From Cyanidioschyzon merolae (lineage: Eukaryota), in the NCBI GenBank assembly GCA_000091205.1, contig AP006497.2: a stretch of DNA of 64,000 bases. One strand, 5' to 3'. This document shows, one piece after another, positions 1-27,841 of this stretch. The translations under genes and the position numbers were made by a program. The number at the start of each line of letters is the position of its first letter. The first letter of the stretch is position 1. The notes beneath the pieces are model-generated. The model had not been told where the DNA came from. It saw only the letters and a program-made list of their open reading frames with translations, and searched no databases.

Positions 1-41
1 ACTGTTGCCGCTGTCCCAGACGCTTGCACTCGATTCCAGCG

Positions 42-1262
42 TCACCACGATGTTGCTGTGGACTCGGCATTGCACCGAGTCTCGATATCGCTGGTGTCAG
101 TGTCCTGTGCATCATCATCGGTATCGATCCAGGGAAAGCGCAAAAGCGCGGCAATGCCGCCGATATCCGCCAACTGCTGGCCAGTCGCGTGTGCGCTACT
201 GAAGAGATGCACCTGGCCTCGGGCCGACTCCACCTGATCGACCAGGGCAACGAAGCGCTTCCTTTCTGACACCTCTCGATGGCGGAACAAGGCGTCCGTG
301 ATTAGGAGGTGCTCGACTGCACCCATTTGTGCGGCTCTCTCTACCTGGTCCGGGCCATAAAGCGCACGATCTGAATCCTGATGTATCTGCTCGTAAAAGG
401 TCTGTAGCAAACGCTGGTTCACAGCAGCCTTGGTGTCATTGATCAGGGTCATGGTCTCGGGCGAGGCGAGCACTTCATGAACGGCCTGCATGCGACCACT
501 GCCTGCCGCCACAGCGATGAACTGTCGCTTGTGTTCCAGAATAGACCGCAGGTCCCGTCGAGCGGCCTCGGCAAACAGGTACTGCAGGAACTGCTCCCGC
601 ACGTAACCCGGTGAAGCGATGACGACGCAACGCACTTGTTCTAAGTTTACCTGCTGGAGCAGTGCTCGCATTACTGCCTCGAAAAAGCGTTCCAGCGCTT
701 TATCTCGCACGCCGAAAGCGGTTGCGGCGCGCTGCAACTTGCTGGGAACGTGCTGCTGGATCCGCGCTCGAAGCAGCGTTGCAGTGCCGCTTACGAGACA
801 GAGGTGCGCGAGTCCTTCCTCCATGACGCAGATCGCGATGTCCGCGGACTTGCTGGGATCACAGGCGGTTTCCAAGGTTCGTAGGTGGACGCGGTCGAAC
901 TGCGACTTGATGAGATCGAACCGAAGCCCGGTCGTTATCTCGAGCGTGTGGTGCTGCTCTCGCTTCACATACTCGTTTTCGGACACGTTCTTGCCCTGGA
1001 TCCGGAGGGAAGGTGCCTCCGTGTCATAGTCAATTCGTTGTACCCGGATCGTCAGCACGAGTCGTACGCGTTCCGTGTGCCGAGCACTGGCGCGTTGCTC
1101 AGTCGCCCCCGCGAGAGCGACTTTTCGCCAGGTGGTTGTTCGCACCAAGTCGCCTTTGTCGATGAGGTTATAGGCGTGCCAGAGGTCCTCGCTGTTTTCT
1201 GGTAAGAGCGCAACTTCAAAGCGCTGATCTTTCAGGCTCACACTGCGTCGGAGGAGCTTCAT
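42..1262 (-). CDS. PELO: Pelota/Dom34 ribosome-rescue factor (eRF1-like).
   Basis: The translation aligns along its whole length with Pelota: an N-terminal MKLLRR..LLPE..EDLWH.YNL, then ..ACDP..AD.A.V.MQEGLAH.CLV.., ..RALERF.., ..VAS.PGFV.EQF.., and an acidic C-terminal tail. The ORF-track start at 1274 is TTG. The first in-frame ATG (MKLL...) is at 1262-1260. Confidence 0.85.
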   Translation of the reverse strand: MKLLRRSVSLKDQRFEVALLPENSEDLWHAYNLIDKGDLVRTTTWRKVALAGATEQRASARHTERVRLVLTIRVQRIDYDTEAPSLRIQGKNVSENEYVKREQHHTLEITTGLRFDLIKSQFDRVHLRTLETACDPSKSADIAICVMEEGLAHLCLVSGTATLLRARIQQHVPSKLQRAATAFGVRDKALERFFEAVMRALLQQVNLEQVRCVVIASPGYVREQFLQYLFAEAARRDLRSILEHKRQFIAVAAGSGRMQAVHEVLASPETMTLINDTKAAVNQRLLQTFYEQIHQDSDRALYGPDQVERAAQMGAVEHLLITDALFRHREVSERKRFVALVDQVESARGQVHLFSSAHATGQQLADIGGIAALLRFPWIDTDDDAQDTDTSDIETRCNAESTATSW

Positions 1263-2593
1263 ACGACGCTGCAACGGGTGTCAACAACGCCAGCGTCAAC
1301 CGCTTGATGGATACCTCGGGCTGTGCTTAAGTTCGCTGTAAACGCGGAACGAGAATGCTTCGTCAAGCGGAAATATCTGCAGGACGTTCGAACCCGATTC
1401 TATAGATCGGGTGGGTGACGCTCTTGATAAAGAGACACCAAGAGCCGGCTTCGTATGTGTAGGTAGACTGGTTACCTGGTTGCATGGAAGCACGGATTTG
1501 GTAAACACGCTTACTCGTAGCAGCGATGGCTCGGTTTTGTGTGGTATGTTCAGCTGCGCGCCTCATATGGAACACTTGTGAACAACAACTGGGGCAATAG
1601 AAACGCTGCGGAGACGCAAACCTTAGAGCGGACACGGTTGGTGGACTTCCCGCACAGCTGCACGCACGACTTGACGTTTGTGTCGAGCTTGCTATCCGCG
1701 AACGAGCTTGTTTACACGGTCAAAGGACTCATCGGGGTCGACAAACGTCCGACTACCCGGTTACTCTATCGAGTTTGCGAATATGCGTTCCAGAGCGCTA
1801 CGTTATGCTGCGAAAAGCCGCGTGTCACAGCACGAAGCGCTGCTCAGGGCACAGGTAGCTCGCTGCCGCGAGCGTATCGGTTCACGACTCGCTGGAAATC
1901 CCGTTCTAATGCAAGTGGTTAGCTTCTTGGCGAGTCGCGGAGCTGCAGCGGTAACGCTGTTTGCTCCGTACGCAGACTCCGTGGCGTCCGCGCAGGCTCT
2001 CCGACCCGAACGCTGAAACCAGTACCCGTCAGGAAGCCTGCTGCATAGATGGATATGAATCGGCATGGTTACCTCGAGGGCAAGGCTACATGCTGATTGA
2101 TACAATACGTTTGCTCGACGGACTCGAGCTTGCCATTGAATTCGTTATGACACTAGGCTCGTAACAGCTGCAACGAAATCACGAGTTTGCCCCAAGGTGC
2201 AGCAGCAGCAGCAGCGCTCACCCGGGTGCAGACGCGGGCTTGTTTCCGCGCGGCACCCGCGGTACGCTCGACGTCCATATGTTCCCTGAATCGATCAAGC
2301 CTAGCTTTCAGAGGACAAGGAATGGACAGGAGCAGGTAGACCGTGAAAGCATCCACAGAAGAATCGAAATCGCTTCGCTGGAAATCGGTTCTATTTGCAT
2401 GCATGCGAGTGTTTGTTTCGATGATTCATCGAGCGTAGATTGTAAGAAACAGCGAGCGAGTCGCATTTCGCGCGAGCAACTGTCCTGAGCTGGCGATACG
2501 CACGATCCTTGCCTTCATCAGTCAACATGGAAGCGGACTTTTAGGATGATCGCACAAGCACGGTATCGGTGGCGAGCGAATGATCGTGATGCC

Positions 2594-4306
2594 TCACGAA
2601 TCGCATAATCCGCACGCTTCAAGGAACTGTTCAGGGTGCTCCAGAAACGGTACATGGCCACATGCCGGAATCACCCGGAAACTGACCTGATGCTCCCGAG
2701 GCGCTGCCTTGTCCATCACTTGATATGCTCGCTCAAGTTCATGCACGCTGATCAGCGAGTCCGTGGCTCCAGCAACGATGCGGATTCGGCCATTCACACA
2801 ACATGGGAGTTGCTCGAGAATAGACCCGCCAGTAGTCTCACCATCTGAGGCCAGCGGGTGCACGCAACGCGCTGTGCGTTTCTTATGCGATACGGTTACG
2901 AGCGCTGCGAACGCCAGATCAGCACTTTGTCCGCCACGACGTGTTGCCAAAGCGTACGTGTAGCGGCGGAGGTACCGCGAGCGAAATCCCAAATCGCGTC
3001 CGGGCCATCGCAGCCGGAATGCTAGATAGCCAAGCACTCCGGCGTTTCGCATGATCATTTGCGGCGTGAGCTGGAAGTACACCGCTCGTTTGTAGCTTTG
3101 CTTGGACCAGATGCCTGCGGGCGTCACGAGCACGAGGTTCTGGACCAGCCCATTCGATGCTTCGACGGTGTAGCGGCTGGCAACGTAGGCGCCGAGCGAA
3201 TGGGCAACAATGTCGATACGTTTCCCGTTTTTGCGACACCAGCTTTCGATGCCGGAACTGTACAGAAATTCAGAGATGCCACGAATCATAAAATGGACAG
3301 CTACTTGGGCCCTCGCTGCGGTGTCCCTCGGGGCACGTCCTGTCGTGTATGGCGGTCGAGACGAGCGCCCCCATCCGAGCATATCGATGGCGTAAACGAC
3401 ATAGCGCCCGGTAGCGGCGAAATCCGCGAGAACGTGTCGGAAGTAAGCAGAAGACATGGAGTGTCCATGAATGAGCAGCAGAGGCCTCAATTGAGGATTT
3501 GTCCCCGAAAACATGTCCTGCTCGTTGCCGGCCACCAGCACGTGCACAAAGGGCAAGGCCGCAGCTGGCGACCGGTTACCGCTTTCGGGGACTTGGGAGG
3601 ATGTGTCGCTTGAAACGCTCGACATGGGTGTCCGCTCGAATGACTCACTATCGGCTACATCCGTTAAAGGAGACAAGTAATCATCTACGCTGAGTGGCGC
3701 CTTCAGTCTCGAAACGCTCATCTCAGAAGACCATTCAGGGAGCGCTTCAGAGCTGACAGAGCTCAGCGAAGGACAACGCCGAAGTATGGGATCTATCGCT
3801 TGAAGTGCTCCACTTTCCGCCTGTTCGACGGGAATATCATCGAAATTGAGTTTTCGCTCGAGCCGTTCCGTACTGGTGCTCGCAACAGCTGCGCACCGGG
3901 TCGCTGCCGTCGGGCCGGACTGCTCCCAGCGCGCGAGCGTGACGCGCCGTGCAGTGACCACCTCGGTATTGGCCTGTTGGGGGCTCGTTCCTCGTCGCCA
4001 TGAATTTCGGAGGGAGCGAATGCGCTCGTATGACAGCTCATCGCTCCCAGCAGGCGGTGCATGGGAGCTTGAGCACGCGCCCTGGTATTCACGACGCAAG
4101 CAGAGCCCCACTTCTGCGAGCACTTTTTCCTCCAGAGCGTCAAGATCCCGCTCAACCACCGGTGGTCGCGTACCCAGTAGGCGAGATAAACACTTTTGCG
4201 CCTCCAGGCTTATGAAAAAAAAGGTTATAACTCGTAACATGGCAGTGCACGTGGAAGCAGCACCAACTCGCGCACTGCACATGCATGGAGCCGCAGCTGC
4301 CGCCAT
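2594..4306 (-). CDS. Alpha/beta-hydrolase fold protein of the ABHD4/5 (CGI-58) type, with a roughly 250 aa low-complexity N-terminal extension.
   Basis: The fold markers are IHGH...Y.IDMLGWGRSSRP, a nucleophile-elbow HSLGAY, and a C-terminal ACGHVPFLEHPEQF, which is the ABHD4/5 architecture. The ORF begins with a real ATG at 4306. Confidence 0.65.
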   Translation of the reverse strand: MAAAAAPCMCSARVGAASTCTAMLRVITFFFISLEAQKCLSRLLGTRPPVVERDLDALEEKVLAEVGLCLRREYQGACSSSHAPPAGSDELSYERIRSLRNSWRRGTSPQQANTEVVTARRVTLARWEQSGPTAATRCAAVASTSTERLERKLNFDDIPVEQAESGALQAIDPILRRCPSLSSVSSEALPEWSSEMSVSRLKAPLSVDDYLSPLTDVADSESFERTPMSSVSSDTSSQVPESGNRSPAAALPFVHVLVAGNEQDMFSGTNPQLRPLLLIHGHSMSSAYFRHVLADFAATGRYVVYAIDMLGWGRSSRPPYTTGRAPRDTAARAQVAVHFMIRGISEFLYSSGIESWCRKNGKRIDIVAHSLGAYVASRYTVEASNGLVQNLVLVTPAGIWSKQSYKRAVYFQLTPQMIMRNAGVLGYLAFRLRWPGRDLGFRSRYLRRYTYALATRRGGQSADLAFAALVTVSHKKRTARCVHPLASDGETTGGSILEQLPCCVNGRIRIVAGATDSLISVHELERAYQVMDKAAPREHQVSFRVIPACGHVPFLEHPEQFLEACGLCDS

Positions 4307-4789
4307 GTCGCTACCCGCCCGGATCCGGTACCGATGCGGTGCGATGCGTTGCCGCGCGCGCGCGGGCGCTGCGGCGCGCCATCCGTTTGCGCTTACGATT
4401 ATAGAGTTTCACCTGAACTGTGTTCCACGTTCAGATCCGTGTCAACGAATGCCTGTTCGCGGTTTATTGCAGGTGCTTTCTACGTGCGTTGATTTTCAAA
4501 AATGCAATATTCAAAGGAAAAGTATGGACATGCAAGTCGGGATCATGGAGGTGAGATGTTGCCTGATTCGACAAAAAGAAACACGATAAGATTCCTCTTA
4601 TTGCCGAGTATCGGACGAAGAAACGCGAGTGACGAAGGCGAAGTGGAAGAAGCGTGTTGATAGGCGAGGAGAGCTGTTTGCCCGACGAGGCTGTGACGTG
4701 ACCTTGGTGGCACAGAGGGCACGAGTCCTTATGCACCCTTGCGTTGATGACTTGTACCAGAGACAATACACGCTGGGAGTTCATGAATC

Positions 4790-4930
4790 GAGACTTCAAC
4801 GCTGCGCCATTAAAAACAGACGATGTGCGGTGCTGAAGAGGCGACCCGCGTACCCGACGCGAGCCAACTTTGTGGGCCAGCCTCTCACACTCGATGTGTG
4901 CAACGATAAACTGAACTCACTAGTCCTGAA
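4790..4930 (+). mobile_element. Short, degraded relic of the TnpB/Fanzor-like element (copy C), covering the region just after RuvC-III.
   Basis: ORF 4629..5051 reads ...QRCAIKNRRCAVLKRRPAYPTRANFVGQPLTLDV.... This matches NAAVNVRRCAVLEKRPPEWTRENFVGQSLKVEL of copy A and KETRPPKLTRPHFLGQPLQVE of copy B. Confidence 0.3.
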
Positions 4931-5591: not shown

Positions 5592-6668
5592 CTAGTTCAA
5601 GGGTTTCGTCGCAAGCCACACCCGATGCCGCGGCGTATTGTTTTCGGTCTGCACGTCAGTGAATCCACTGATTGTCAGTAAACTGACCATATCGACGCGT
5701 TCATACTCAGAAAAATACGGTTCAGTGCTGCGGAATATGGCTGCTCCGACCGGGGGTATCGAACGGAACGCTTCGCTGTGCGGATCAGAATCCATCATCG
5801 CCAACATGCCTCCGGGGCGAAGCACTCGATACGCCTCTACCACGAGACGCTCGGTCGCTGCCATGGGCAGCTCATGTGTCACCAGGGAACATAACACGAG
5901 GTCCACCGAATCCGCTTTCTGAGGGAGGTTCTCGACCGCGGCGTGCTTAAAACGCACCTGAATCGATGACGGGTAGCTGCGCTCCTCTGCACGTAACTCG
6001 GCAACCGCAAGCATGAACGTCGATAAATCGATTCCTGTTATGTCGAGCGGGCGTTCCGGATACCGTGCTAGCCATGCATCGATGAAGCGCATCGTGCTGA
6101 GTCCAGTCGACGCACCCAGGTCGAGTGCTACCAGTGGACGTCCCATGGGCACGAGCAGCTGTTCCAGACGAGGCCAGACTCGGTCCAGGAAGGTGTCGCG
6201 TAGCAGGCGGTCACCTTGCGTGGGCGGTGCTTCCGGGAAAAGGCGTGCATGGACCGCCAGAGCCGACGACTCGACTTCCATGGCAGGAATCCAGCCAAGG
6301 TTCCCTTCCGGATACGTATGGAACGGTGCACGTACGTAGTAGTCTGGATATACGAGGTCGCGTTCGACAAGTCGCGCTCGTTTCTGTTCGAGGGTGTCCC
6401 ACTTGAGCCGCAGCTCACGAACGTTCTCTCGCCAGGGCACGCCGATCTCCTCCGCTCTCTTGACGACACCTGCACGGCCAATTCGCTTCAGTAACCAAGC
6501 AGTGGGCGGGAAAGCTAAAATCCCTTGTACTATCAGAGCCGGCAGTTTGCCCTCGGGGTTTCGCGTCACTGGAGTCGTCGCCGAAGCGTGAATCCATCGA
6601 CAAGCTCGGTATCGAGTGCACTTCTGAGACGGCAGTCTCACGCATGGAACAAAGTTTAACTGCGTCAT
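5592..6668 (-). CDS. Class I SAM-dependent methyltransferase (Methyltransf_11-like). The 5' end is uncertain.
   Basis: Methyltransferase motifs are present: motif I VALDLGASTG, post-I ITGIDLS, motif II ADSVDLVLCS, motif III LRPGGMLAMMD. An upstream conserved block DLVYPDYYVRAPFHTYPEGNLGW is also present. The first plausible in-frame ATG is MTQLNF at about 6668. The 637 aa ORF continues upstream through a transposon relic. Confidence 0.6.
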   Translation of the reverse strand: MTQLNFVPCVRLPSQKCTRYRACRWIHASATTPVTRNPEGKLPALIVQGILAFPPTAWLLKRIGRAGVVKRAEEIGVPWRENVRELRLKWDTLEQKRARLVERDLVYPDYYVRAPFHTYPEGNLGWIPAMEVESSALAVHARLFPEAPPTQGDRLLRDTFLDRVWPRLEQLLVPMGRPLVALDLGASTGLSTMRFIDAWLARYPERPLDITGIDLSTFMLAVAELRAEERSYPSSIQVRFKHAAVENLPQKADSVDLVLCSLVTHELPMAATERLVVEAYRVLRPGGMLAMMDSDPHSEAFRSIPPVGAAIFRSTEPYFSEYERVDMVSLLTISGFTDVQTENNTPRHRVWLATKPLN

Positions 6669-6689
6669 GAGGCTCGCTATCAAACGCCG

Positions 6690-7400
6690 TTCTAAAGTCG
6701 AACGACGTCGGACGTGTATCGTAGTGGCGGTGAACGTGCCTTCGACCAGAGGTCTTCGACTGTCGTGCAGACGCCTTCCGGTCTTTTCGGACCGGCCACC
6801 TACTCCTGATTCCAACTTTTTCTCATATAATTCCACTTTGAGCGATTGTCCAACAAAGTTCTCTCTTGTCCACTCTGGAGGTCTTTTCTCCAGCACCGCA
6901 CATCTCCTGACATTGACAGCAGCGTTGAAGTCTCGGTTGACGAATTCCATACGTTTCTTGCCGCCGTTGGTTGTGCTCACCAGCGCATGTAGTGCTCGAA
7001 CTTTCGTCCTGCTTCCCATTTGCTCTTCTGTCAAGACTCCGCACTTTTTTATATCGTCAGGACTGATCTGGCAATTTTCCATCTCGAGCGTCTGAAGTGT
7101 ACACCCCAGCTCGTGGTCTATGCAGGACGTCCGGAACTCGTCTATCGGGAATGTGACAAAACGCCTTGCGCACTCCTTGTACGCGCGTGTCGGTGAGGCT
7201 GGAGTGCACCCTGTTTTCGACGCCCAGCGCCCTGCTCCGTATGCTGGTACGAGCCTTTGACGCTTGTCCTCCTTGAGGGTGCTCAGCGCATGAAAAAAGT
7301 TCCCAAATGCACGCCATTCCGCACAGTACAAGTTCATACGCGGACGATGGCATGGACCTTGGCTTTTGCACGCTCTCTCCGCCACTGCTTCCATTGCCGC
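6690..7400 (-). mobile_element. Degraded TnpB/Fanzor-like (OMEGA-type) nuclease fragment covering RuvC-II, the zinc finger and RuvC-III (copy A).
   Basis: The translation reads ...RLVPAYGAGRWASKTG..P...AYKECARRFVTFPIDEFRTSCIDHELGC...C...C...KKRMEFVNRDFNAAVNVRR. This resembles TnpB blocks: (i/v)xxGxxxx...TSQxCsxCG and the RuvC-III signature DxNAAxNI. The DNA and its antisense ORF (6667..7095) align with copy B at 23420-24000. Confidence 0.5.
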
Positions 7401-9945
7401 TCTCTTAGCCCCGAGTGAACATGTGCCGGTCTCTCTTGTCCTTGCAGTTCCCGAGTCAGCAGTCGAGGGATGTCGATGGCAGCGTTCAAGTTCCGATTTC
7501 GCCACTTCCCGCCCTTGGTAACGCGTCCCGCGCGTAGGGCCAAGTTGCGGTCCGCACGTCGTTCCCCACGTTCATCTTCTGTGCACATACAGCTTCGGTG
7601 TGTCTTTCGCTGCGCTGACACCGGACTATGATCAGACGTTCGCATATTCGTCTGCCGCATCTCTCACGCGACCGAGCGCCGCCCTGTGGCATGCGAAGGC
7701 TTGCTTCAGCGCTCGATGCATGTCCGGGACTGGCGTAGAAGGCGCTCGTCGAATCCATTCTTTGTCTGCATACCGGATGCCGTGACGAACGATGACGGGC
7801 TGCTTCCGGGCGATTCCCTTTGCGAGTGCGCTGTATGGTGCAAAAGCAAGCATACGCTGTCCCGTTTGAGAAGGGATTCGTGGAATGCGATATTGGCCGT
7901 GGTGAAGCAGGCACCGGAACGATAACACTCATAGGAGAACCAGTCAAGTGATTTCGATCCGTCCACGCTGTTCTACAGCGAAGCGGCGATCCAGTCTGCA
8001 CCAGAGGCGATCGCTGCGACGACTATAGTCAGGGACTTCATTCCATGCAACCAGAAGAGGCGAGTGCATCTGGGCGCGAATCCCCGTGTAACGTACGATG
8101 CAGCTGTCGAATTCCCTGTCTCGCGGATGACCACAGGGACACAAGGATTTGTCTTTCGAAAGGATTCGATCATTTGATACGAGAAGCACGATGAGGCTTG
8201 GGCGTGAGCGTGTGAACACGTCGTCAAGGAGCGACGTCGGGCTCCGTGCCGCGCCAGTCCAGTGGCGAGCATTGCTGTGCCCACGGGTTGCCTTGAAACA
8301 GAAAGATCGAAAACATGAAGCATGCATGATTTGCGCATGCTGTACACAAGGAATGCGATAGCGGTAGAGGCTTGTGCCTACAAATTGGTTCATAAAATCG
8401 GCTATTTTACAAACCTTTGTTTGGCGGCGTCGAGAAGCATCTCGATCCCGGCGACGTATCGAGTTACAGGGGCAACGCGTCGAAAGTGGCACGCAGTAAC
8501 GCCGACCGGGAATCCGGAAACCGCGCATGAATTCCCAAGCCCTGATTGTTGCACTTTGAGTGTCTAGACCATATATCTAGGAAAATGCCGGGGAATAAAA
8601 TCGAAAGGCAGGGCCAGCGTGTGCAGTGCAGTATCCCATTCCAATCTAACGCTCGGCTAGCATAAACCGCTGTTCACGAAACGGCATCCATGCAATAAGA
8701 GGAGTCAGCGTACGCTCCGCAAGTCGAAATTGGACTGGGTATTCGGCAGCCTCGCAGGCGCGTTCATCGCTCTGGGCGACGAGTTCCAGAACTGGAGAAG
8801 TCTCTCTGCTCCTTCGGTGCCTCCGCGTGCAACCGAGACTTGGCCAAACAAGTGACAGGTAGCAGGCGCCCGTCACGCAATCCCCAGCATCTTCGACCGT
8901 ATCATCCGTACCGGGAATTCGGATGCTCAACACGGCCAGGCGACGATGCGCGTCCGTTTCGGAGCAGGCGAAGCGGTGCGCTCCAACGCCGGCACCCGTG
9001 GCGCCTCGCATCTCTTCGGCGAAGCGACTCGAACGCGTCAACCCCAAGATATTTCTCTAAGACTTGGCAAAGCTATTGAATTGCCGTGACGCACACAACG
9101 AAGCGCTACCCCGATTGCACCCTGCTTTTATGGTACACGGTCGATGCACCGAGCCAGATTGCCATCGGTAACCGGAAATGAAATCGATGCGCTCATCCAG
9201 ACGTTTTTGCGTATCTGAACCCTGGACCCGTATTCCCCGTAACACTGCACGCTTGATCGATCCCGCAACGCTCAGAGTGCAACGCCCATGGTACACGTCA
9301 AGCAGAGACAACACGATTTTCATCGATCCTTGGAGGCATTCGTTCAAGGCAGTTGCGTCATTTTGCATGCCGAGCGCTCGCTTGGCCGAGATCCGCGCAC
9401 CTCTGTGCGCGGCGTCCATGCGCCGGTACCCGTGTCCGTGCGCGGCTGAATGGCGCAGCGATCGCCGTCGCGCCGCCGCCACGCATCGCTGTCCGGTGTC
9501 GCATCCGTGATCGCGGCATCGCATCGGATGCGTGCAGCGCATGCACCCCGCGCGCCCAGCACGGATCGCGCAACCAAAGCATCGACGTCACGCGCCCTGA
9601 GCGCAGCGCCCGCGGACGCTTGAGGGCGTCGCGTGCATTCACGACGCTCGCGGGATCGGAATCTACTTCCGTGCATTTCGCAGCTTTGAGTAAACTTCAA
9701 GACACAGAAGCGCAGCTTATTTCGATCTCAAGTTTCATCTAGCGTTCGCTTACGTGTCGCAAAAGTGGAGAAAGCAATATGCTGGTTCTGCCTGCGCTCT
9801 GCAGCGTACCAGGCACCGCGTCACTCTGATCCGCAGTTGTTGACCTGCGCGCCCTCATCGACACACAGACGTGGTATCCAGGACGAAGCGCGTCCGCTGG
9901 TCTCGTTGTGATCCGGCAAATGCGCCCACGCCCGTGGCGCAAACA

Positions 9946-11106: not shown

Positions 11107-11454
11107 CTTTGTTCAATAGTTTTCGTGCCACTCGGTTCAGAACGGTTTCCTCGAACCGTTTCGAGAAACGCTTGACGCTGACACCACGACGAGAACGCTC
11201 TGAGCTGGTAACCCGCCCGCCGACCGAACGTTCGTCCTGACGCTGCGGCGCGCAGGCTGCGGGTGCCCGGTCGAGCAGTGGTGGTGGCGTCTGAAAATGC
11301 GCACGCGCGCGCGCTAACGCAATCTCCGGCATCGGCACCGACCGCACTAGATAGAACAAAGGACAGAGGCTATCCAGTAACTAGCAACGATATAAGGATT
11401 TATTTTCTCTTCTATGATTAATGTTAACATGACGGAAGGATTTCCGTATTGTCA

Positions 11455-12150
11455 AAAGTTTAGCTTCTAGGCGGAAGGTCCCGCGATCTGGACAAGTCTG
11501 TTAGGCTGATGCTTCATGCGCTCCCGCAATAGCTGTTGCTCTAGCGAGACCTGAGCAACTCGTCCGCAAACGCAGTTCATTCTGGGACTCAGAGCGGATA
11601 CACTGCGTTTCGATGTCGTCACGGTCGCAGTGGACTTCTTGTATATTGCTTCGCGCTGCAGCAGGCAATAGGTCCGTCTGCGCGATTGGCTCGTTCCCGG
11701 AATGCTCATGAATCCTGATTCCGTAGCAGGTGAATGTAGGCAAAAGGTCCGTCTGCGCGATTGGCTCGTTCCCGGAATGCTCATGAATCCTGATTCCGTA
11801 GCAAGTGAATGCAGGCAAAAGGTCCGTCTGCGCGATTGGCTCGTTCCCGGAATGCTCATGAATCCTGATTCCGTAGCAGGTGAACCACGCCTCGGGCCGG
11901 CACCCTTTGCAGTATGGCAAAAACGTCCTACCTCCGCGATGTATCGTCATCAGCGGTATGAGCGATAAAGCGGACGCTCACGACAGGTACTCGGCGCACG
12001 ATAGAACATACGAAACGACCAGCATATCCGTGAGGAAATATGGGTAAAGGAACTTGGAGCTAGGGTGCAGCACCATGACCAACGCTCTTCTGATTACCAT
12101 TATCCATCCGGCAACCTGTCATCCATGCTCCATGTCCACCGGTTTGTCAT
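11455..12150. repeat. Dispersed repeat, copy A (about 550 bp core), carrying an internal tandem expansion.
   Basis: It begins aggcggaaggtcccgcga... and is alignable along most of its length with 25975-26510. Antisense and sense ORFs in the two copies translate to similar peptides (MLMNPDSVAGE..PAPFAVWQKRPTSAMYRHQRY versus MLVNSDSVSGG..PAPFVVWQKRPVSVMHRHQRL). Confidence 0.6.
11671..11895. repeat. Tandem repeat of 75 bp x 3, nearly identical units, inside dispersed-repeat copy A.
   Basis: Units start at 11671, 11746 and 11821 with the sequence ggtccgtctgcgcgattggctcgttcccggaatgctcatgaatcctgattccgtagcaggtgaatgtaggcaaaa. Copy B (25975-26510) carries a single unit. Confidence 0.85.
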
Positions 12151-12409
12151 CGAGAGAGACGGAGAGAGACCGGATAGCGCCATCGATGCGCTATCGTCGA
12201 TCGCCGCCGCTGCCATCATCTGTTGAGGGTGCCTCCAGCCGCCAGCGCGCGCCCGGATCGCGGCGACCGCTCTGCGCATCCGTCGTCCAGAGGCACGGAG
12301 TTGTGAACCTGCCCCCAGACACGTACGCTGCACCGTGTACTGCCTTTGCAGGAGAGGCGCTCTCAAGTCTCCGCTATTCAGGTTCACTTCTGGCGCATCT
12401 TCTATCGGA

Positions 12410-16427: not shown

Positions 16428-19400
16428 AATTCTGCGCATAAGCGCTGCGGCGGGTCTGTGAATTCCGATACGAACAACCCCCTATACCTGTGTCAGCTTA
16501 AGAATGAACCATTGGAATGCTCGCCCTGTTCCTAGCGTGCGAATTTCTCCCGACCTTGTTTGTAGATGTACAGCCTCGCCGTTCGAAATGCGACAATGAG
16601 CGATGACGGATTCAAACGTAGTTGTAGGGTTCTCGATCGTCTTGTCAGTGTGGCTCGTTTCTCGCTTTGCCGCTAGAATTCGGTACGTTACCGGAATCTA
16701 GGTGATTCGCGATGCCATGGAACCAGGGCTCGTAAAATAATCGATATCGTTACGAAGTGCATATGTAGAATTTTTCACGCGTCCCTTTTCGGTACCTGCT
16801 ACATGTTAAAATCGCAAATTCTTCAAGTCCTCCATGTTTCTGTTTCGTGGCAATTCGTAGACGCAGCCATTCGCGTCGCTGGATCGAGGAAAAAAAACTG
16901 GACGCCGTCCACTGACGAATTCATCACAGGTTCATGGCTGGCGTTTACTGACTTTGTCACGTGAAAAATTCAAAGCAGCTCGAAGGACAACACTCTTGCT
17001 TGATTGTGGCTATCGAGAAAACGACATTCGACAGCAGCATGATACGTCAGCCAGGACACGCTTCTACTAGAGGCTCCCGTCTATTCTGTTACCACGGAAA
17101 AGGATTGTGGACTCGGGCTTGAGCCAGCGCAGTGATCGCTTCTAGGGAAGCGCCCGTCACCGCCTGGTCCGAACTGAGCATAGACGGATCGAAATTTCTC
17201 GACTTGATCTTGAGGATCGATTTTTTTCTGGGATTCGCTTCATCATGGACAAGTTCGCAGTGCACAAATCCTCTATCGAATGGGACGGCGTACGCTTGGA
17301 CATGCATCGGGCAGTGTACTCGCTGTGCGTATCGGCCAGAAGAAGGCCGGAATTATAGGGTACGGTCTCGGGCATGGAAACGAGCCACGGAAACGACGGG
17401 TGCGCTCTCTGAACCTGTAAAGGGTATGAAGTGAACGCTGAATGAGGCGTTCATGGTCAACAGGACAGCTCTCGGAGGATACGGTACCGTAGACATATGG
17501 GAATACCCGACCGCAGTGAGGTCGCACCGGTGCAAAGCGCACATCGCGACTGTATGCGAAGAAAATGCGACCGGCAAGCGAAGCATATGAACTGCATCTA
17601 CCGCCTATGCACGAAATGCGTCGCTAGCAGCCCGGAGCAGCAATATCGGCATTTGACTGCAGCAATCGACATGCTTCGACTGCTGAAAATGGAACTGGAG
17701 GGAAACGGGAGCAATGCATTCTTGAATCCGGAGATGCTTGTAAGGCAAAAGAAGCAACCACAGAAAAATCCGCAAAATCCAGTTTTCATGACAATCAGAT
17801 GTAATCCGAACGTCCTTATGTACGCCAGAGTTTGGTACTTGGTTCCTGTCCATCTCAGCCTGACATGAACGCCCATAAAGCATCCATAGAGTCGACATGA
17901 GCCAGGAAAAGAGCACATAGCGCGAACGCGCTGGCCTCGGGATGCGTCCGCCCAGGAGACTGCACGCGCTGTGTGGGCGGCCCCAGTTCGAACGCTTTGG
18001 TTCCCGGCTTGAAGCAGGTCGTGCATACGAGTTGCTCCATCTTTGAGGATACCATTCAAGTCACCCGCGGCTGTGATTCTTTATGATACCGTGGATCGCG
18101 TCTTCGGAATACCAGACAGGTTGCGCTGGTCCCATGTCCACAGGAAATATGGCTAGCTGTAGCATCCCTAGCGGGACGGCCGCCAGCATTGGAGCTGCAC
18201 CCAACAAATAGATGTACACGACGTGCATTTAGCTCCTAGTGCCAGGCACGTGAACGCATCCGCCAAGTATTCGCTCAAGGTGCCTTGCAGGTGCACGCGA
18301 TTACGGTGGAAAATCCGCGTACCTAAAAGCAAGCAAATGCCCCCAGAATGCAGCGTCTCTCGGAGCGTCTCTCTGCCGTTCAGGGATGTACCGGTACGCT
18401 GTCGCTCATTTCCTTGAATTTGACGATTCCGATATCGAGGAGAGCGCTCCTGTATTAGACGCTCGCAGCCCTATCCGATTTCGGAGCGAAACGGAACAGG
18501 AAAAGTCGAAGTTCCATCGGTAGGCAGCCACTCATCAAGATCATCCAATTACCCGTGAACGTCGACCTGGTCTCTGCACCAAGCGTACCCATGGTATTGC
18601 ACGACGTGACGAGCCTTGCGATCTATGCGTCCAGGTGGGCGACTCCGGGAACCCGGAACCAGCGTCCTGCGAACACTTCGTAGACGCGACGCCTCGACGG
18701 TGCCCAGTACTGGCGCGTTTTCGGAGGTGCGCAACTGCACAGTTGCATTGCACTGACTCTGGCTTCGCGTCGCATACGCGTTGTACGATTACTGAGCAGC
18801 GACACTCTCTATGCACGCGCTGGTGTTGCTCCCGATGTACGCACAACGTCCAACTTGGAACGGAACCGTCGCCGCAACACACGCCTAGATCCTGGTTCAG
18901 GAGGAGTAACCAATGGTGCTGCTTCGAGTTTTAGGACGGCATGAAAGAGAGCTCCGGCGTATCTTGAATTCAAGATTATCGCCAAGATCAGATTGCCGAG
19001 TTGTACGCCATTGCCCCGAGCCCTGTTTGGGTCTCGCTCACAACGGCCAGCATGTGCGCAAATAGAGTTGTTGCGTTCCCGATATTCGCTTCCGATAAGC
19101 TACGCACGATCTGTTGTTTCACGTCGAGCGTGGGCTGCAAGCACTTGAGCCAATCCCCTGCATGTATTTCGCTTGCCAGCGGCTGCAGGTTGTACGCTGC
19201 TCCGCACTGAGCGGTCGCAGCCTGCACTTGAGCCAATCTCCTGACACCATTCGAGGGAAGCAGCCGCAGCCGCAGCCGCAGCCACAGGCTCTTTGCGTGC
19301 TCGCTCTCCATTGCATTTTCGTACGTACGCTAGACAGACACAGACTCGATCATTGCGGGAAATGGATTTCCGCATGCACTCTGAAGCGCCATAGGCATCA

Positions 19401-23419: not shown

Positions 23420-24000
23420 CACCGAGCCGATCGGCGGACGCTTCGCCGGCTTTTCGGACCGGCAACCAACTACTCCTGCGTGCAACTTCAGGTCGTACTA
23501 TTCGACCTGGAGAGGTTGTCCCAGAAAGTGGGGTCGTGTCAGCTTCGGAGGTCTCGTCTCCTTCAGTGCACGTCTCCTAATATTGATTGCAGCGTTAAAG
23601 TTTCGGTTCACGAATTCCATACGTTTCTTGGCATTGGTTGGTATCACCGACGCAAGTAGACCTCGAACTCGCAACCTCCACGCCATCAGGTGCTCTGGCA
23701 GCGCTCCGTACTTTGCTATATCCTCAGGGCTCCGCTGGCACTTTTCCATCTCGGCACTCTGAAGTGTACACCTCAGCTCGTGGTGTAGATAGGAGTTTCG
23801 GTTCCCATCTATTGGCAACGTGACAAGACGGTGTGCGCACTCCTTGTACGTTCTTGTCGTTGGAGCGGGTGTACACACTTTTTTAGACGCCCGGCGCCCT
23901 GCGACGTATGATGTTACGAGCCTTTGGCTCCTGTCCTCATTGAGGGCGCTCAACTGGTTGAAAAAGTTGGCGAATGCACGCTTTTTTCCCACTGTACAAG
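23420..24000 (-). mobile_element. Degraded TnpB/Fanzor-like nuclease fragment (copy B) covering RuvC-II, the zinc finger and RuvC-III.
   Basis: ORF 23498..23992 reads ...RLVTSYVAGRRASKKVCTPAPTTRTYKECAHRLVTLPIDGNRNSYLHHELRC...KKRMEFVNRNFNAAINIRRRALKETRPP. The antisense ORF 23343..23762 parallels 6667..7095 of copy A. About 600 bp of DNA aligns with copy A. Confidence 0.5.
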
Positions 24001-24545
24001 CTCATACGCAAGCGATTCATCCGGGGCTTTGTATATTCTTTGCACAGCGCTTCCCAATGAGCAACGCGAACTTTTATGAACTCCCGAATGACCTGAAAGT
24101 CCGCTCCATGGCTCGTCACCTCGCTCATAGCTTCCAGATGCTCGTTCACTCCTTCATTTTACGTCTCAATTTTCTTCCTTGCATTCATTATTCCCGATTC
24201 TCGGTAATATCTAGCTTCTGAGAGCTTCAACAGAGGCATGTTTTCCTGGCGCAAGCCGCCGTCAATACCATCTTCCCCACGCTCGGATACCGCAATAGGT
24301 ATAATATTCATGTTCCCGGGGCCCGCGCCAACGACATAGTCCTTACCCTGCACCGCATGCGTCGCAGGATCCGCCTCCTTTTTTTTCATGCCTCGCCGAC
24401 GGCGAAGCATGAAGATGCAATGGGACGATCCACTTTCAAGCGCCGATCGTGTACACACACGGCTGCTCCATCGGCTTCGATCATCTCAGTAAATAACTTT
24501 TGTTTGCTCGTTTTCAGACGTTTGAAATCGAACATATTCACCCAA

Positions 24546-25358
24546 TTACGTCTCCCGGTTTTCGCCCGTAAACTCCTTGCTGCTTAGATCGAACTCCGGA
24601 TAGATCTCCTTCATTTTGCTGTAAAGTACGTAGGGGCCAACTGTCACAAAATGTGACTTGATGTTGCATAGCGGAACGACATTGAAGCGCTTACCCATTC
24701 GGGCAGCGTTCCGTTTCTCTGACTCTTCATTTTTCCCCTCACACGCTGCTCCATCTCCGCCTTGCGTTCGAGTTCTCGATTCAGGAATACGAAATAGTGC
24801 AGGATGAGCGGATAAAAACTTTTTTTCATCTCTGATACCTTTTCTGCTGGATTTGACAAGCCCCAAGACTACACAGTGCTCGTGAACAGCCATACGAATG
24901 ACAGAAGCTTCATTCTTGCCCCTGCGTGATGCCTTCTTGTCGACGAATTCGATCCCCTGTCCATTCTGGCGATCGTTCGTGATGCCACTGATGATGGCCC
25001 GTATCCCCTGGCGGGAGAGGCCCGGGCACAGTGTAAAAATAGCCCGTATGATGAAACGTTCGAGGTTCACGATCATATGGTTCTTCCGGTGCTTGAGGAA
25101 CTTGATTGCCCCGTAGGTGTAAATATCACCATCATCCCTGCATCGAGTACCGTCGAAGCGGAATTCGGCGTAATTCTCGTGGAGGGCGTGCACTCGCTCA
25201 TTTTTCGTCGACGTTTCCCCTGTGCCAACCATCAGGTGGCGAATAAACGTCTTGCTGAAAAATCCCCCCGGGACCTCGACCATTTTGATGCCCATCACGT
25301 CCCGAAACATCTTCTTCATCAAATACATAAGCCCTGACGGAGCCTTCATAATACTCAT
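24546..25358 (-). other. Unassigned 270 aa ORF inside an AT-rich island (about 24000-25800). It lies upstream of, and in the same orientation as, Fanzor-like copy B, and may be the N-terminal or other coding part of the same element.
   Basis: Its base composition differs sharply from the flanking DNA. It is a long ORF co-oriented with copy B. I recognise no motif with confidence. Confidence 0.25.
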
Positions 25359-25974
25359 GGAGTACGACTCGACACGGTTTCTGAGTGCATCTCACAACTT
25401 TCCCTTTTAGGGATCCTTGATATGCCGAAGAAGACGGGCTTTCACAACCATCTCGTCATAGTGCCGTCTCTCTTGCAGCCTCTGACGTCGGACTTCCCCC
25501 TTTTTGCTTTTCGTCCTCTCCTGTTCTTCTGTACTTGACACTGTTTCTTCTTGCAGCCGGCGACATGATGCCTCCATAATCCTCCATTTCCATTTCCATG
25601 ACTTGCACTTTTCATTTTTTTCAAAAAGAACACGCTTTGAAAGCCTCTGCTATAACTCACGAAAAATCACTGGAATACACTTACTTGAGGGTTGGAACAC
25701 AGTTGAGTTCAAAAACTCGACGTTGCTATGACTTCAACGTAAATCCATCCGGTAAGTTAGAGCAACACGCTGATGATCAGGATCGTGTTCCCCTTGAACG
25801 GCGGCGTACGCATGGTGTATCATACCTTCCAGATTTAGAGATGCGCCTATCGACAGCACTATGCGGAGCAAAGAACAAAGACTTACCACTAAATGGCGAC
25901 GATACATCGATGTCTTTCGCTCTCTACGATAAACGTGAAAAGGGGAAAATGTTTCTGACCTGTCGAAAGCGTAC

Positions 25975-26510
25975 CTTAAAGGCGGAAGGTCCCGCGAACC
26001 GCACGAATCTCCCAGGCTTGCGCCTCATGCGCCTCCCAGTGGCGGGTGCTAGAGTGAGATCAAAGCAAATCGTACGAAACGCAGTTTATTCTGGGACCAG
26101 GGGCGGGCGGCTTGCTTCTGGGCGTCGCCCTTGTCGTGGAGGACTCCCCGGAAATCGCTTCTCGTTGCCGCTGATAGGATGTCCGTCTGCGCAGTTTGCT
26201 AGTTCCCGACATGCTAGTGAATTCCGACTCCGTATCAGGTGGAGCATTCCTCGAGCCGGCACCTTTCGTAGTATGGCAAAAACGTCCTGTCTCCGTGATG
26301 CATCGGCATCAGCGGTTGAGGCGCTGTTGCGGATGCAGTAATGCAGGTAATCGGCACACGATAGAACGTACAAACCGACCAGCGTATCCGAAAGGAAGTA
26401 TAGGTCAAGGAACTTGAGGGTGAGGTGCAGCAGCATGATGGACGCTTTTCCAATTACCATTACCCATCGCGCAATAAGGGATCCATGGTCAATGCCAACG
26501 TTTTGTCATC
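25975..26510. repeat. Dispersed repeat, copy B, homologous to 11455-12150 but with a single 75 bp unit.
   Basis: It begins aggcggaaggtcccgcga.... Similarity to copy A continues through ...ggcaaaaacgtcct..tccg.gatg.atcg.catcagcgg... and ...ggaacttg.g...ggtgcagcagcatga...attaccatta.ccatc.... Confidence 0.6.
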
Positions 26511-27841
26511 GAAAAAATCTCCCAACTCAGCTCTGCATCATGCCGCCGCTGGAGCGCGCGCTCGATCCGCCACCACGCGATCGTACCGATGGCAGAAATG
26601 TCAGGCCTGGAACGGTGCTGCTGCTGCTGCTGCGTGATGCATTGGGCGCTGGAACTGCAAGCCGCTCACTTGCTACTGCCGCGCCATCTGGCATTTGGTC
26701 AGCTTACCATCACATCATCTCATACATCCGTAACTGTTTCACGCGCTTCTTGTCTACCAGTTTCGAAGAGCAGTCGTGCCCGTGATTCGCTCATTTCATC
26801 CTGGACGCATCCGTGTGAATCGTGCAGAGTCGACTCCTGCAAGTATGGGGTGCTCACGTCGAGGGCGCGGAGGTGCAGCGAGCGCGCAGTCGCATGTCCA
26901 GCGCCATGGGTTGCCGCCGAGCGACGTGACGTATCGTTCAGTGGCAATCAACATCATTGAACAAGTTGGCGACTGCACGCCTCTTGCCTCCATGTAACTG
27001 TTGCCGTCGGTGTCGCTAGCGCGATATTATGTACTCCTGCCAGATAACGTTCGCATGAGCGACGTTGGCGCTCACGCACTCTGGGAATGAAGTGCGTAAC
27101 GCTCGCTACACTGCTCCGTGCTGTGGTCAGCGCTTCGGAATGGGCCCCCAAACCGCCATTCCACTTATTGGCATGCCCGTTGGCGTCCATCACGCTGACT
27201 CCCCGATCGTACCATTTCGTGGAAAACTCGAACGGATTCATGCGCTTCCTGTTCAGCCATTTGACTTGTTTGTCTTGATCTAGAGGGACGTCGATGGCCG
27301 CAAAACCCTTCGACGGGGGTTGCGTGCGCTTTTCCTCGCCCATACGCGTCGCTTCATCGCCGTTCGCATGAACGGCACGGAAACAACACATCATGTGATT
27401 TGTTGCATAGTTTTTCGTTGAGAACGTATGTATTCGGATGGTGTGATGAGAAAGTAGCCCTTCAAACACCGTTTGAAAGCTCTATCTTTGCCGCAAAACC
27501 TTGCGGATATGGACGACGAGATGCATGGTCCATGCGCCTGCTGACCACAGCATCCAGGATATGTCTAATTAAGATCTAGCTTGTCGCAATCGAACAAGGA
27601 CATGTCGACATCTCATCGCGACTACGCTCCACGTATCTGAGCCGTCCTGTGCTCTTACGTATCTGCGAGAAAAACAAACAAAACCTAAAAGGGCTTGCCA
27701 GATCAGGTGTTCCTGAATTCACTGCTCTAATTATAACTATACTTGTTCTGGGAACGCCAGCTCCCAGTTGCCTGCGAAGCGAGCCTTCAGCTTCCGCGCT
27801 CGTCGACGCCACTCGGACTGCGCAGCTGCTCCAGTGGTCGT

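Follow-up and report, generated by a model that had tools for sequence, protein, structure and literature searches.

The 64,000-nucleotide (nt) stretch of Cyanidioschyzon merolae DNA analysed here (the window) carries on its minus strand a 637-amino-acid open reading frame (ORF; positions 5592-7505) that joins two distinct parts. Its downstream part encodes a host methyltransferase, and its upstream part contains the C-terminal motifs of an RNA-guided nuclease of the Fanzor/TnpB type. This nuclease-like segment (copy A; Table 1) is almost certainly an old, 5'-truncated and non-functional copy of CMe-1A, the Fanzor1 transposon of C. merolae. Three ORFs in the window are identical to proteins of C. 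merolae 10D nuclear genes (BAM81539.1, BAM81541.1 and BAM81542.1), and because these matches are exact, the window can be assigned to the genome in which the CMe-1A family was first described.

The published account of CMe-1A reports ~150 copies in C. merolae with ~80% identity to their consensus, a length of ~3 kb and no terminal inverted repeats, lists only one Fanzor family for this alga, and notes that the 5' 635 bp form a separate element, TE-N2_CMe, and that an intact Fanzor1 gene survives in some CMe-1A copies; its supplementary files contain the 3169-bp consensus and the 734-amino-acid CMe-1 protein (Bao and Jurka 2013, Mob DNA 4:12; PMC3627910). CMe-1A, a Repbase family, is a non-autonomous repeat of ~3.17 kb whose sole gene encodes this Fanzor1. 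The 2013 paper already covers the element and its placement in Fanzor1, as well as copy number, length and the composite 5' module; none of these is new here.

Copy A can be aligned directly with that consensus. By blastn, positions 6714-7347 match consensus positions 2504-3137 with 82.0% identity over 634 bp, and the whole of 6673-7347 matches a consensus derived from metagenome copies with 80.4% identity. A hidden Markov model (HMM) of the CMe-1 family recovers copy A with E = 6e-109. Within the window, copy A is 74% identical at the nucleotide level to 23434-24009 (579 bp aligned), part of a longer copy (copy B), and a scrap near 4776-4887 (part of copy C) is a further match. At E ≤ 1e-3, copy A has 157 relatives among proteins, and metagenome contigs contain 485 genomic relatives. 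These resemblances are far above chance expectation.

Similarity to the element ends upstream at 7347. The adjoining segment, 7348-8450, abuts the truncation point and is another dispersed repeat; parts of at least 10 related loci resemble it at 65-75%, as does 16818-17711 on the opposite strand. The WED, REC and RuvC-I parts of the nuclease are absent from copy A, which therefore is dead and cannot encode a nuclease. No copy in the window retains the RuvC-I catalytic Asp: copy A is truncated before RuvC-I, and copy B carries Gly in its place. The original prediction, which had described a decayed rather than active C-terminal relic of a Fanzor/TnpB-type nuclease, with no RuvC-I upstream, in a repetitive family at a eukaryotic nuclear locus, is borne out in each of these respects, and the peptides that it quoted occur exactly in the minus-strand translation of 6600-7400.

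Table 1. Positions of CMe-1A-derived sequences, motifs of copy A and the adjoining host gene in the window
Feature	Coordinates	Strand	Basis or remark
Copy A	6673..7347	-	last ~200 Fanzor1 codons and non-coding right end; 3' ~670 bp, the 3' fifth of the element
RuvC-II beta-strand RLVPAYGAGRW	7224..7256	-	Gly at the canonical TnpB catalytic Glu position
PIDEFRTSC, relocated (alternative) catalytic Glu followed by TS motif	7122..7148	-	translation and alignment
Degenerate TNB/zinc-ribbon segment, no C4 zinc finger	7005..7121	-	family consensus compared with solved Fanzor1
RuvC-III motif RMEFVNRDFNAAVNVRR, catalytic Asp kept	6903..6953	-	translation; includes NRDFNAAVNV
Lost stop codon site	6735..6754	-	consensus GACGTTTTGTCTAGGGCGCG, copy A GACCTCTGGTCGAAGGCACG; TAG to GAA context
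Non-coding right-end tail, candidate 3' part of a guide-RNA (fRNA/omegaRNA) scaffold	6683..6752	-	tail alignment of 51 copies
Host S-adenosylmethionine (SAM)-dependent methyltransferase, 358 amino acids from Met 6668	5595..6668	-	Pfam Methyltransf_11, E = 5e-16; not part of the element
Copy B, near-full-length CMe-1A	23434..26511	-	blastn positions 1-3084, 81.3% over 3102 bp
Solo CMe-1A 5' module, TE-N2_CMe-like	11339..12152	-	blastn positions 1-655, 76-80%
Copy C, two scraps of a heavily deleted CMe-1A	4456..4925	+	blastn, HMM
Very decayed Fanzor1-like relic abutting the 5' end of copy B	26743..27274	-	tblastn E = 7e-12

The relic and the adjoining methyltransferase

The reference gene model for this ORF (BAM81538.1 / XP_005537574.1; 600 amino acids, 'similar to bacterial putative methyl transferase') begins at 7394 and takes in the entire relic, which supplies its first ~240 residues. 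Read-through of the relic into the methyltransferase occurs because the stop codon of copy A is mutated. The true methyltransferase start is most likely the Met at 6668, ~15 nt after the end of the element, and an exact-sequence look-up found the corresponding 358-amino-acid form among gene calls, where the Joint Genome Institute (JGI) names it a UbiE-type methylase. Copy A inserted, or was cut short, ~15 nt upstream of the methyltransferase start codon, and the later loss of its stop codon created an artificial ORF of 600-637 amino acids.

A relic held in frame with an enzyme could instead have been domesticated as its N-terminal domain, in which case the 600-residue protein would be real and the Fanzor part co-opted. 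The ORF does run from 7505 to 5592 as a single uninterrupted frame, and forms of 600 or 581 amino acids appear in the reference annotation and in several metagenome gene calls. We nevertheless regard domestication as highly improbable. In L002, one of the genomic relatives from metagenome contigs and an orthologous locus with 99.3% nucleotide identity to the window, a TAC to TAG change at window position 7241 places a stop codon inside the relic. The other differences between the two loci comprise 6 non-synonymous and 2 synonymous changes upstream of Met-280, compared with 2 and 3, respectively, in the methyltransferase part. Moreover, the frame is open only through the mutated stop codon of the element, gene calls also include the shorter form that begins at 6668, and, with breaks occurring in copy B about once every 370 bp, an unbroken run of ~600 bp is not unusual. 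The stop codon in the orthologous locus led us to reject the relic-methyltransferase ORF as a genuine fusion protein; the fusion is, on this comparison, an annotation artefact.

Assignment of the family to Fanzor1

In intact members of the CMe-1 family, the split RuvC domain has an Asp in VVGADPGN, Gly at the RuvC-II Glu position, a Glu in VDEFRTS and an Asp in NRDFNAA. The part of this series that lies within copy A is preserved (Table 1), including the G-rich strand and the DxNAAxNI-type RuvC-III signature with its Asp, both of which had been recognised at the outset. The spacing from AYGAG to DEFRTS is ~33 residues in copy A and in the family consensus alike. Replacement of the canonical RuvC-II Glu by Gly or Pro, together with a relocated Glu downstream, is the 'rearranged catalytic site' of Fanzors (PMC10530073). 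The DEFRTS Glu (E592), the RuvC-III Asp (D658) and the RuvC-I Asp of DPG (GADPGN in the family consensus) are each nearly invariant in a 79-sequence alignment of the wider clade to which CMe-1 belongs. Among solved structures, PIDEFRTSC aligns with LIDEFRTSS of Parasitella Fanzor1 and LLDEYKTSS of Spizellomyces Fanzor1, and D658 aligns with the Asp of NRD in the solved Fanzor1 proteins.

A profile of the family was compared with 1.84 billion representative sequences, which yielded 1675 relatives in public metagenomes; E ≤ 1e-30 was reached by 316 of these, and many are intact at 600-700 amino acids. The CMe-1 profile reaches this wider clade at E = 1e-55 to 1e-173, and one relative (P0241) is 43% identical to CMe-1 over its full length. 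A clade profile was then built from 79 of the 1675 relatives and searched against the whole PDB, with matches counted at E ≤ 10. Exactly three distinct sequences were matched, all of them solved Fanzor1 proteins: those of Parasitella parasitica (9cf0, E = 3.3e-21), Spizellomyces punctatus (8gkh, E = 8.8e-14) and Guillardia theta (9cer, E = 2.8e-9). No TnpB, Cas12 or Fanzor2 structure was among the matches. These alignments remain collinear across the WED strand FTGTIeTDGvsv, the RuvC-I motif DPG, DEFRT[ST] and NRD-NAA-N, and the solved proteins (9CF0, 8GKH and 9CER) share the same block order, F-TG-I-TDG, DPG, DE[FY]xT[ST] and NRD.

Several results weigh against this assignment. Pfam gave no TnpB or Fanzor match for copy A, even at E ≤ 1, and nothing above threshold for copy B, for pieces of related loci or for long family members; PF07282 alone appeared, below threshold. 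Profiles built from the family only, whether from a C-terminal or a full-length alignment, found no Fanzor or TnpB among all PDB sequences, and membership in Fanzor1 thus rests on the transitive profile step and on the literature. An AlphaFold2 model of the longest usable family member (P0127), made with a 64-sequence alignment of 60-90% identical and hence little informative proteins, reached a predicted local distance difference test (pLDDT) score of 49 and a predicted template modelling (pTM) score of 0.36 and was unusable as fold-level support. To these points is added the lack of a C4 zinc finger. This finger defined Fanzor and TnpB in the 2013 motif and is, by alignment, absent from the CMe-1 family. 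A PF26935 (DUF8286) tag that was precomputed for some members was not reproduced in our Pfam scan and was set aside.

The zinc-ribbon question bears on one claim of the original prediction that has to be withdrawn. The TS-C-x-C start of a zinc finger that it had read in copy A corresponds to TSYTHHELGC in the family consensus, and the Cys after TS is a private Y-to-C change of this copy. No C4 zinc finger (TNB) lies between the TS motif and RuvC-III in CMe-1 or in the 79-sequence clade. Solved Fanzor1 proteins have four TNB zinc-ribbon Cys residues (TSSFCPKC...HGLLRCKNMSC), whereas the canonical positions are occupied by H, L, A and T in the CMe-1 family (TSYTHHELGC...EKC...RGLLALVSTT). Intact relatives touch PF07282 (Cas12f1-like_TNB) below threshold only, at E = 0.002-0.09. 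The clade also has an acidic tandem repeat before RuvC-I, unlike the solved Fanzor1 proteins.

The family was thus missed by Pfam and by family-only profiles, and was reached by the wider-clade profile and by the published consensus. The refutation that the absence of a profile match seemed to provide is overturned because the transitive profile search identified Fanzor1 and because copy A directly matches the published Fanzor1 element consensus.

The RuvC/TNB core is common to Fanzor and TnpB, and faint PF07282 similarity is present. The segment might accordingly be considered a remnant of a prokaryotic IS200/IS605 TnpB that arrived by contamination or by recent horizontal transfer. TnpB of these transposons (e.g. 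ISDra2) has the superfamily RuvC/TNB architecture and a right-end guide RNA and, like CMe-1, is transposon-borne. However, CMe-1 lacks the canonical RuvC-II Glu, has OrfB and TNB similarity in Pfam only below threshold and, at ~734 amino acids, is much longer; no TnpA-like or other second ORF was found in the 3.2-kb unit. The genes on either side belong to the C. merolae 10D nuclear genome, the PDB matches are exclusively Fanzor1, and hundreds of copies exist in the alga and its relatives, which together make a TnpB remnant a close to negligible prospect. Fanzor2 proteins of IS607-like elements (e.g. mimivirus ApmFz2) are eukaryotic or viral TnpB homologues in which the relocated Glu is likewise found (PMC10530073). 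CMe-1 differs from these in having no serine recombinase, no match to a Fanzor2 in the PDB and a long N-terminal half that is typical of Fanzor1. Chance resemblance, or an unrelated zinc-ribbon protein, would fit the negative Pfam and family-only PDB searches and the non-conserved finger but is just as remote a prospect as a TnpB remnant, given that the transitive profile matches only Fanzor1, with E values down to 3e-21 and collinear motifs, and that copy A matches the published Fanzor1 consensus directly.

The complete element and its ends

Coverage of genomic relatives along a reference copy delimits a unit of ~3.2 kb with sharp ends, and in many copies the sequence begins no earlier than position ~730. 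From 27 metagenome copies, a majority consensus was built that is 92-94% identical to the published CMe-1A consensus and restores an almost uninterrupted ORF of about 740 amino acids. This ORF begins with a basic N-terminus resembling a nuclear localisation signal, followed by a long WED/REC half, acidic tandem repeats and the split RuvC domain, in which VVGADPGN, RLVVAYGAGRW, VDEFRTSYTHHELGC and NRDFNAAINIRR occur in this order before the stop codon and a non-coding tail of ~125 nt with a terminal hairpin. The longer protein relatives extend N-terminally beyond the part preserved in copy A into VVGADPGNTNIITIA, which resembles a RuvC-I strand. The published element has the same 5' terminus (CGATGACAAAACGTTTAC...), the same 734-amino-acid ORF and the same 3' end as the element studied here; copies in the window are 81-82% identical to its 3169-bp consensus, and nothing essential differs.

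In alignments of 5' junctions (loci L001, L052, L058, L060, L069 and L077, and window positions 26511-26525), conservation extends ~12 nt further 5' than the published consensus, into a T-rich leader (GATTTTTYTTTC), and the conserved 3' end lies ~6-10 nt past the published one (TTKDTGG). The published CMe-1A termini may therefore be slightly short, as these alignments suggest. Only one of five copies had significant terminal repeats, direct or inverted, shared by its 5' and 3' ends, and no target-site duplication was evident in the junction alignments.

In two independent insertions, the right end of the element directly precedes a host gene of like orientation, an RF-1 gene in one case (L001, 6737-8059) and the methyltransferase gene of the window in the other (6668). 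Such positions may point to insertion at sites close to the 5' ends of genes, or to tolerance of such sites, in a compact genome.

The non-coding tail as a putative guide RNA

The guide-RNA region of Fanzors lies 3' of the ORF (PMC10530073). The original prediction had placed such a region on the low-coordinate side of the relic, at about 6600-6800. The side is correct, as the tail of copy A occupies 6683-6752, but the extent is not, as the host methyltransferase occupies the DNA from 6668 downward. Across the family, the tail is conserved, ~125 nt long and sharply bounded at its 3' end. In copy A it contains a GGC..GCC stem at 6726-6740, the conserved sequence CACTACGATACAC at 6714-6726 and a terminal hairpin, GACGTCGTTCGA-CTTTA-GAACGGCGTT, at 6683-6709. 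In 51 copies, the terminal ~35 nt have a mean minimum free energy of -11.5 kcal/mol, compared with -5.6 +/- 3.3 kcal/mol for windows of the same length elsewhere in the element. The hairpin occurs as two sequence variants that fold in different registers.

Four results give no support to a conserved RNA fold: RNAalifold on 32 tails gave a weak consensus of -6.75 kcal/mol with zero compensatory pairs, tail conservation is not higher than that of the ORF, folds of the whole tail reach z scores of -1.4 to -2.6 only, and the tail has no match in Rfam.

The fRNA role proposed for the tail is suggested by homology with the Fanzor family. If CMe-1 operates as its biochemically characterised Fanzor1 homologues do, transcription of an intact copy would run on through the 3' tail; this tail RNA (fRNA/omegaRNA) would associate with the CMe-1 protein, the sequence just beyond the right end would serve as the guide, and matching double-stranded DNA would be cleaved by the complex beside a short motif.

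Other copies in the window

Three related copies had been proposed in this stretch, and all three are present. The segment at 23420-24000 is the 3' part of copy B, which is near full length, and that at 4790-4930 corresponds to a scrap of copy C at 4738-4925. Copy B has at least six frame breaks, as its HMM matches jump from frame to frame, and has independently lost each of the three RuvC catalytic residues: GAGPGN (D to G), DGNRNS (E to G) and NRNFNAA (D to N). The final ~85 nt of the element, terminal hairpin included, are missing from copy B as well. The two scraps of copy C correspond to consensus positions 843-934 (window 4456-4551) and ~2903-3019 (4738-4925).

The solo 5' module spans 11421-12150 when mapped with the 27-copy consensus. 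Beside this TE-N2-like insertion lie two neighbouring, divergently oriented genes, both annotated as 'similar to hedgehog protein' (BAM81541.1, 12969-14495, minus strand; BAM81542.1, 14835-16427, plus strand). The relic that abuts the 5' end of copy B has 28-34% amino acid identity to the CMe-1 consensus, with HMM E values of 8e-6 and 4e-3, and may represent an older or second family.

Implications

The function of Fanzor proteins was established in 2023. Since CMe-1A was described in 2013, the discovery value of the present finding is small, and its consequences concern mainly annotation. BAM81538.1 / XP_005537574.1 combines a transposon relic with a methyltransferase in one chimeric gene model, and its start should be moved to the Met at window position 6668. 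In addition, standard Pfam scans miss the CMe-1 Fanzor1 clade completely, so that without clade-specific profiles Fanzor relics in algal genomes will go under-annotated. The absence of the TNB zinc finger across the clade is of some interest for work on Fanzor structure and function.

A broader proposal can be put forward tentatively, and we consider it rather less probable than its contrary: CMe-1 and its ~1,700 mostly environmental relatives might constitute a zinc-finger-less Fanzor1 subfamily, whose intact members in thermoacidophilic Cyanidiales might be active RNA-guided nucleases that use the ~125-nt hairpin tail as an undescribed fRNA scaffold. If this were true, hints at how CMe-1A, an unclassified element, is mobilised would also come from the conserved hairpin at its 3' end and the T-rich leader at its 5' end.

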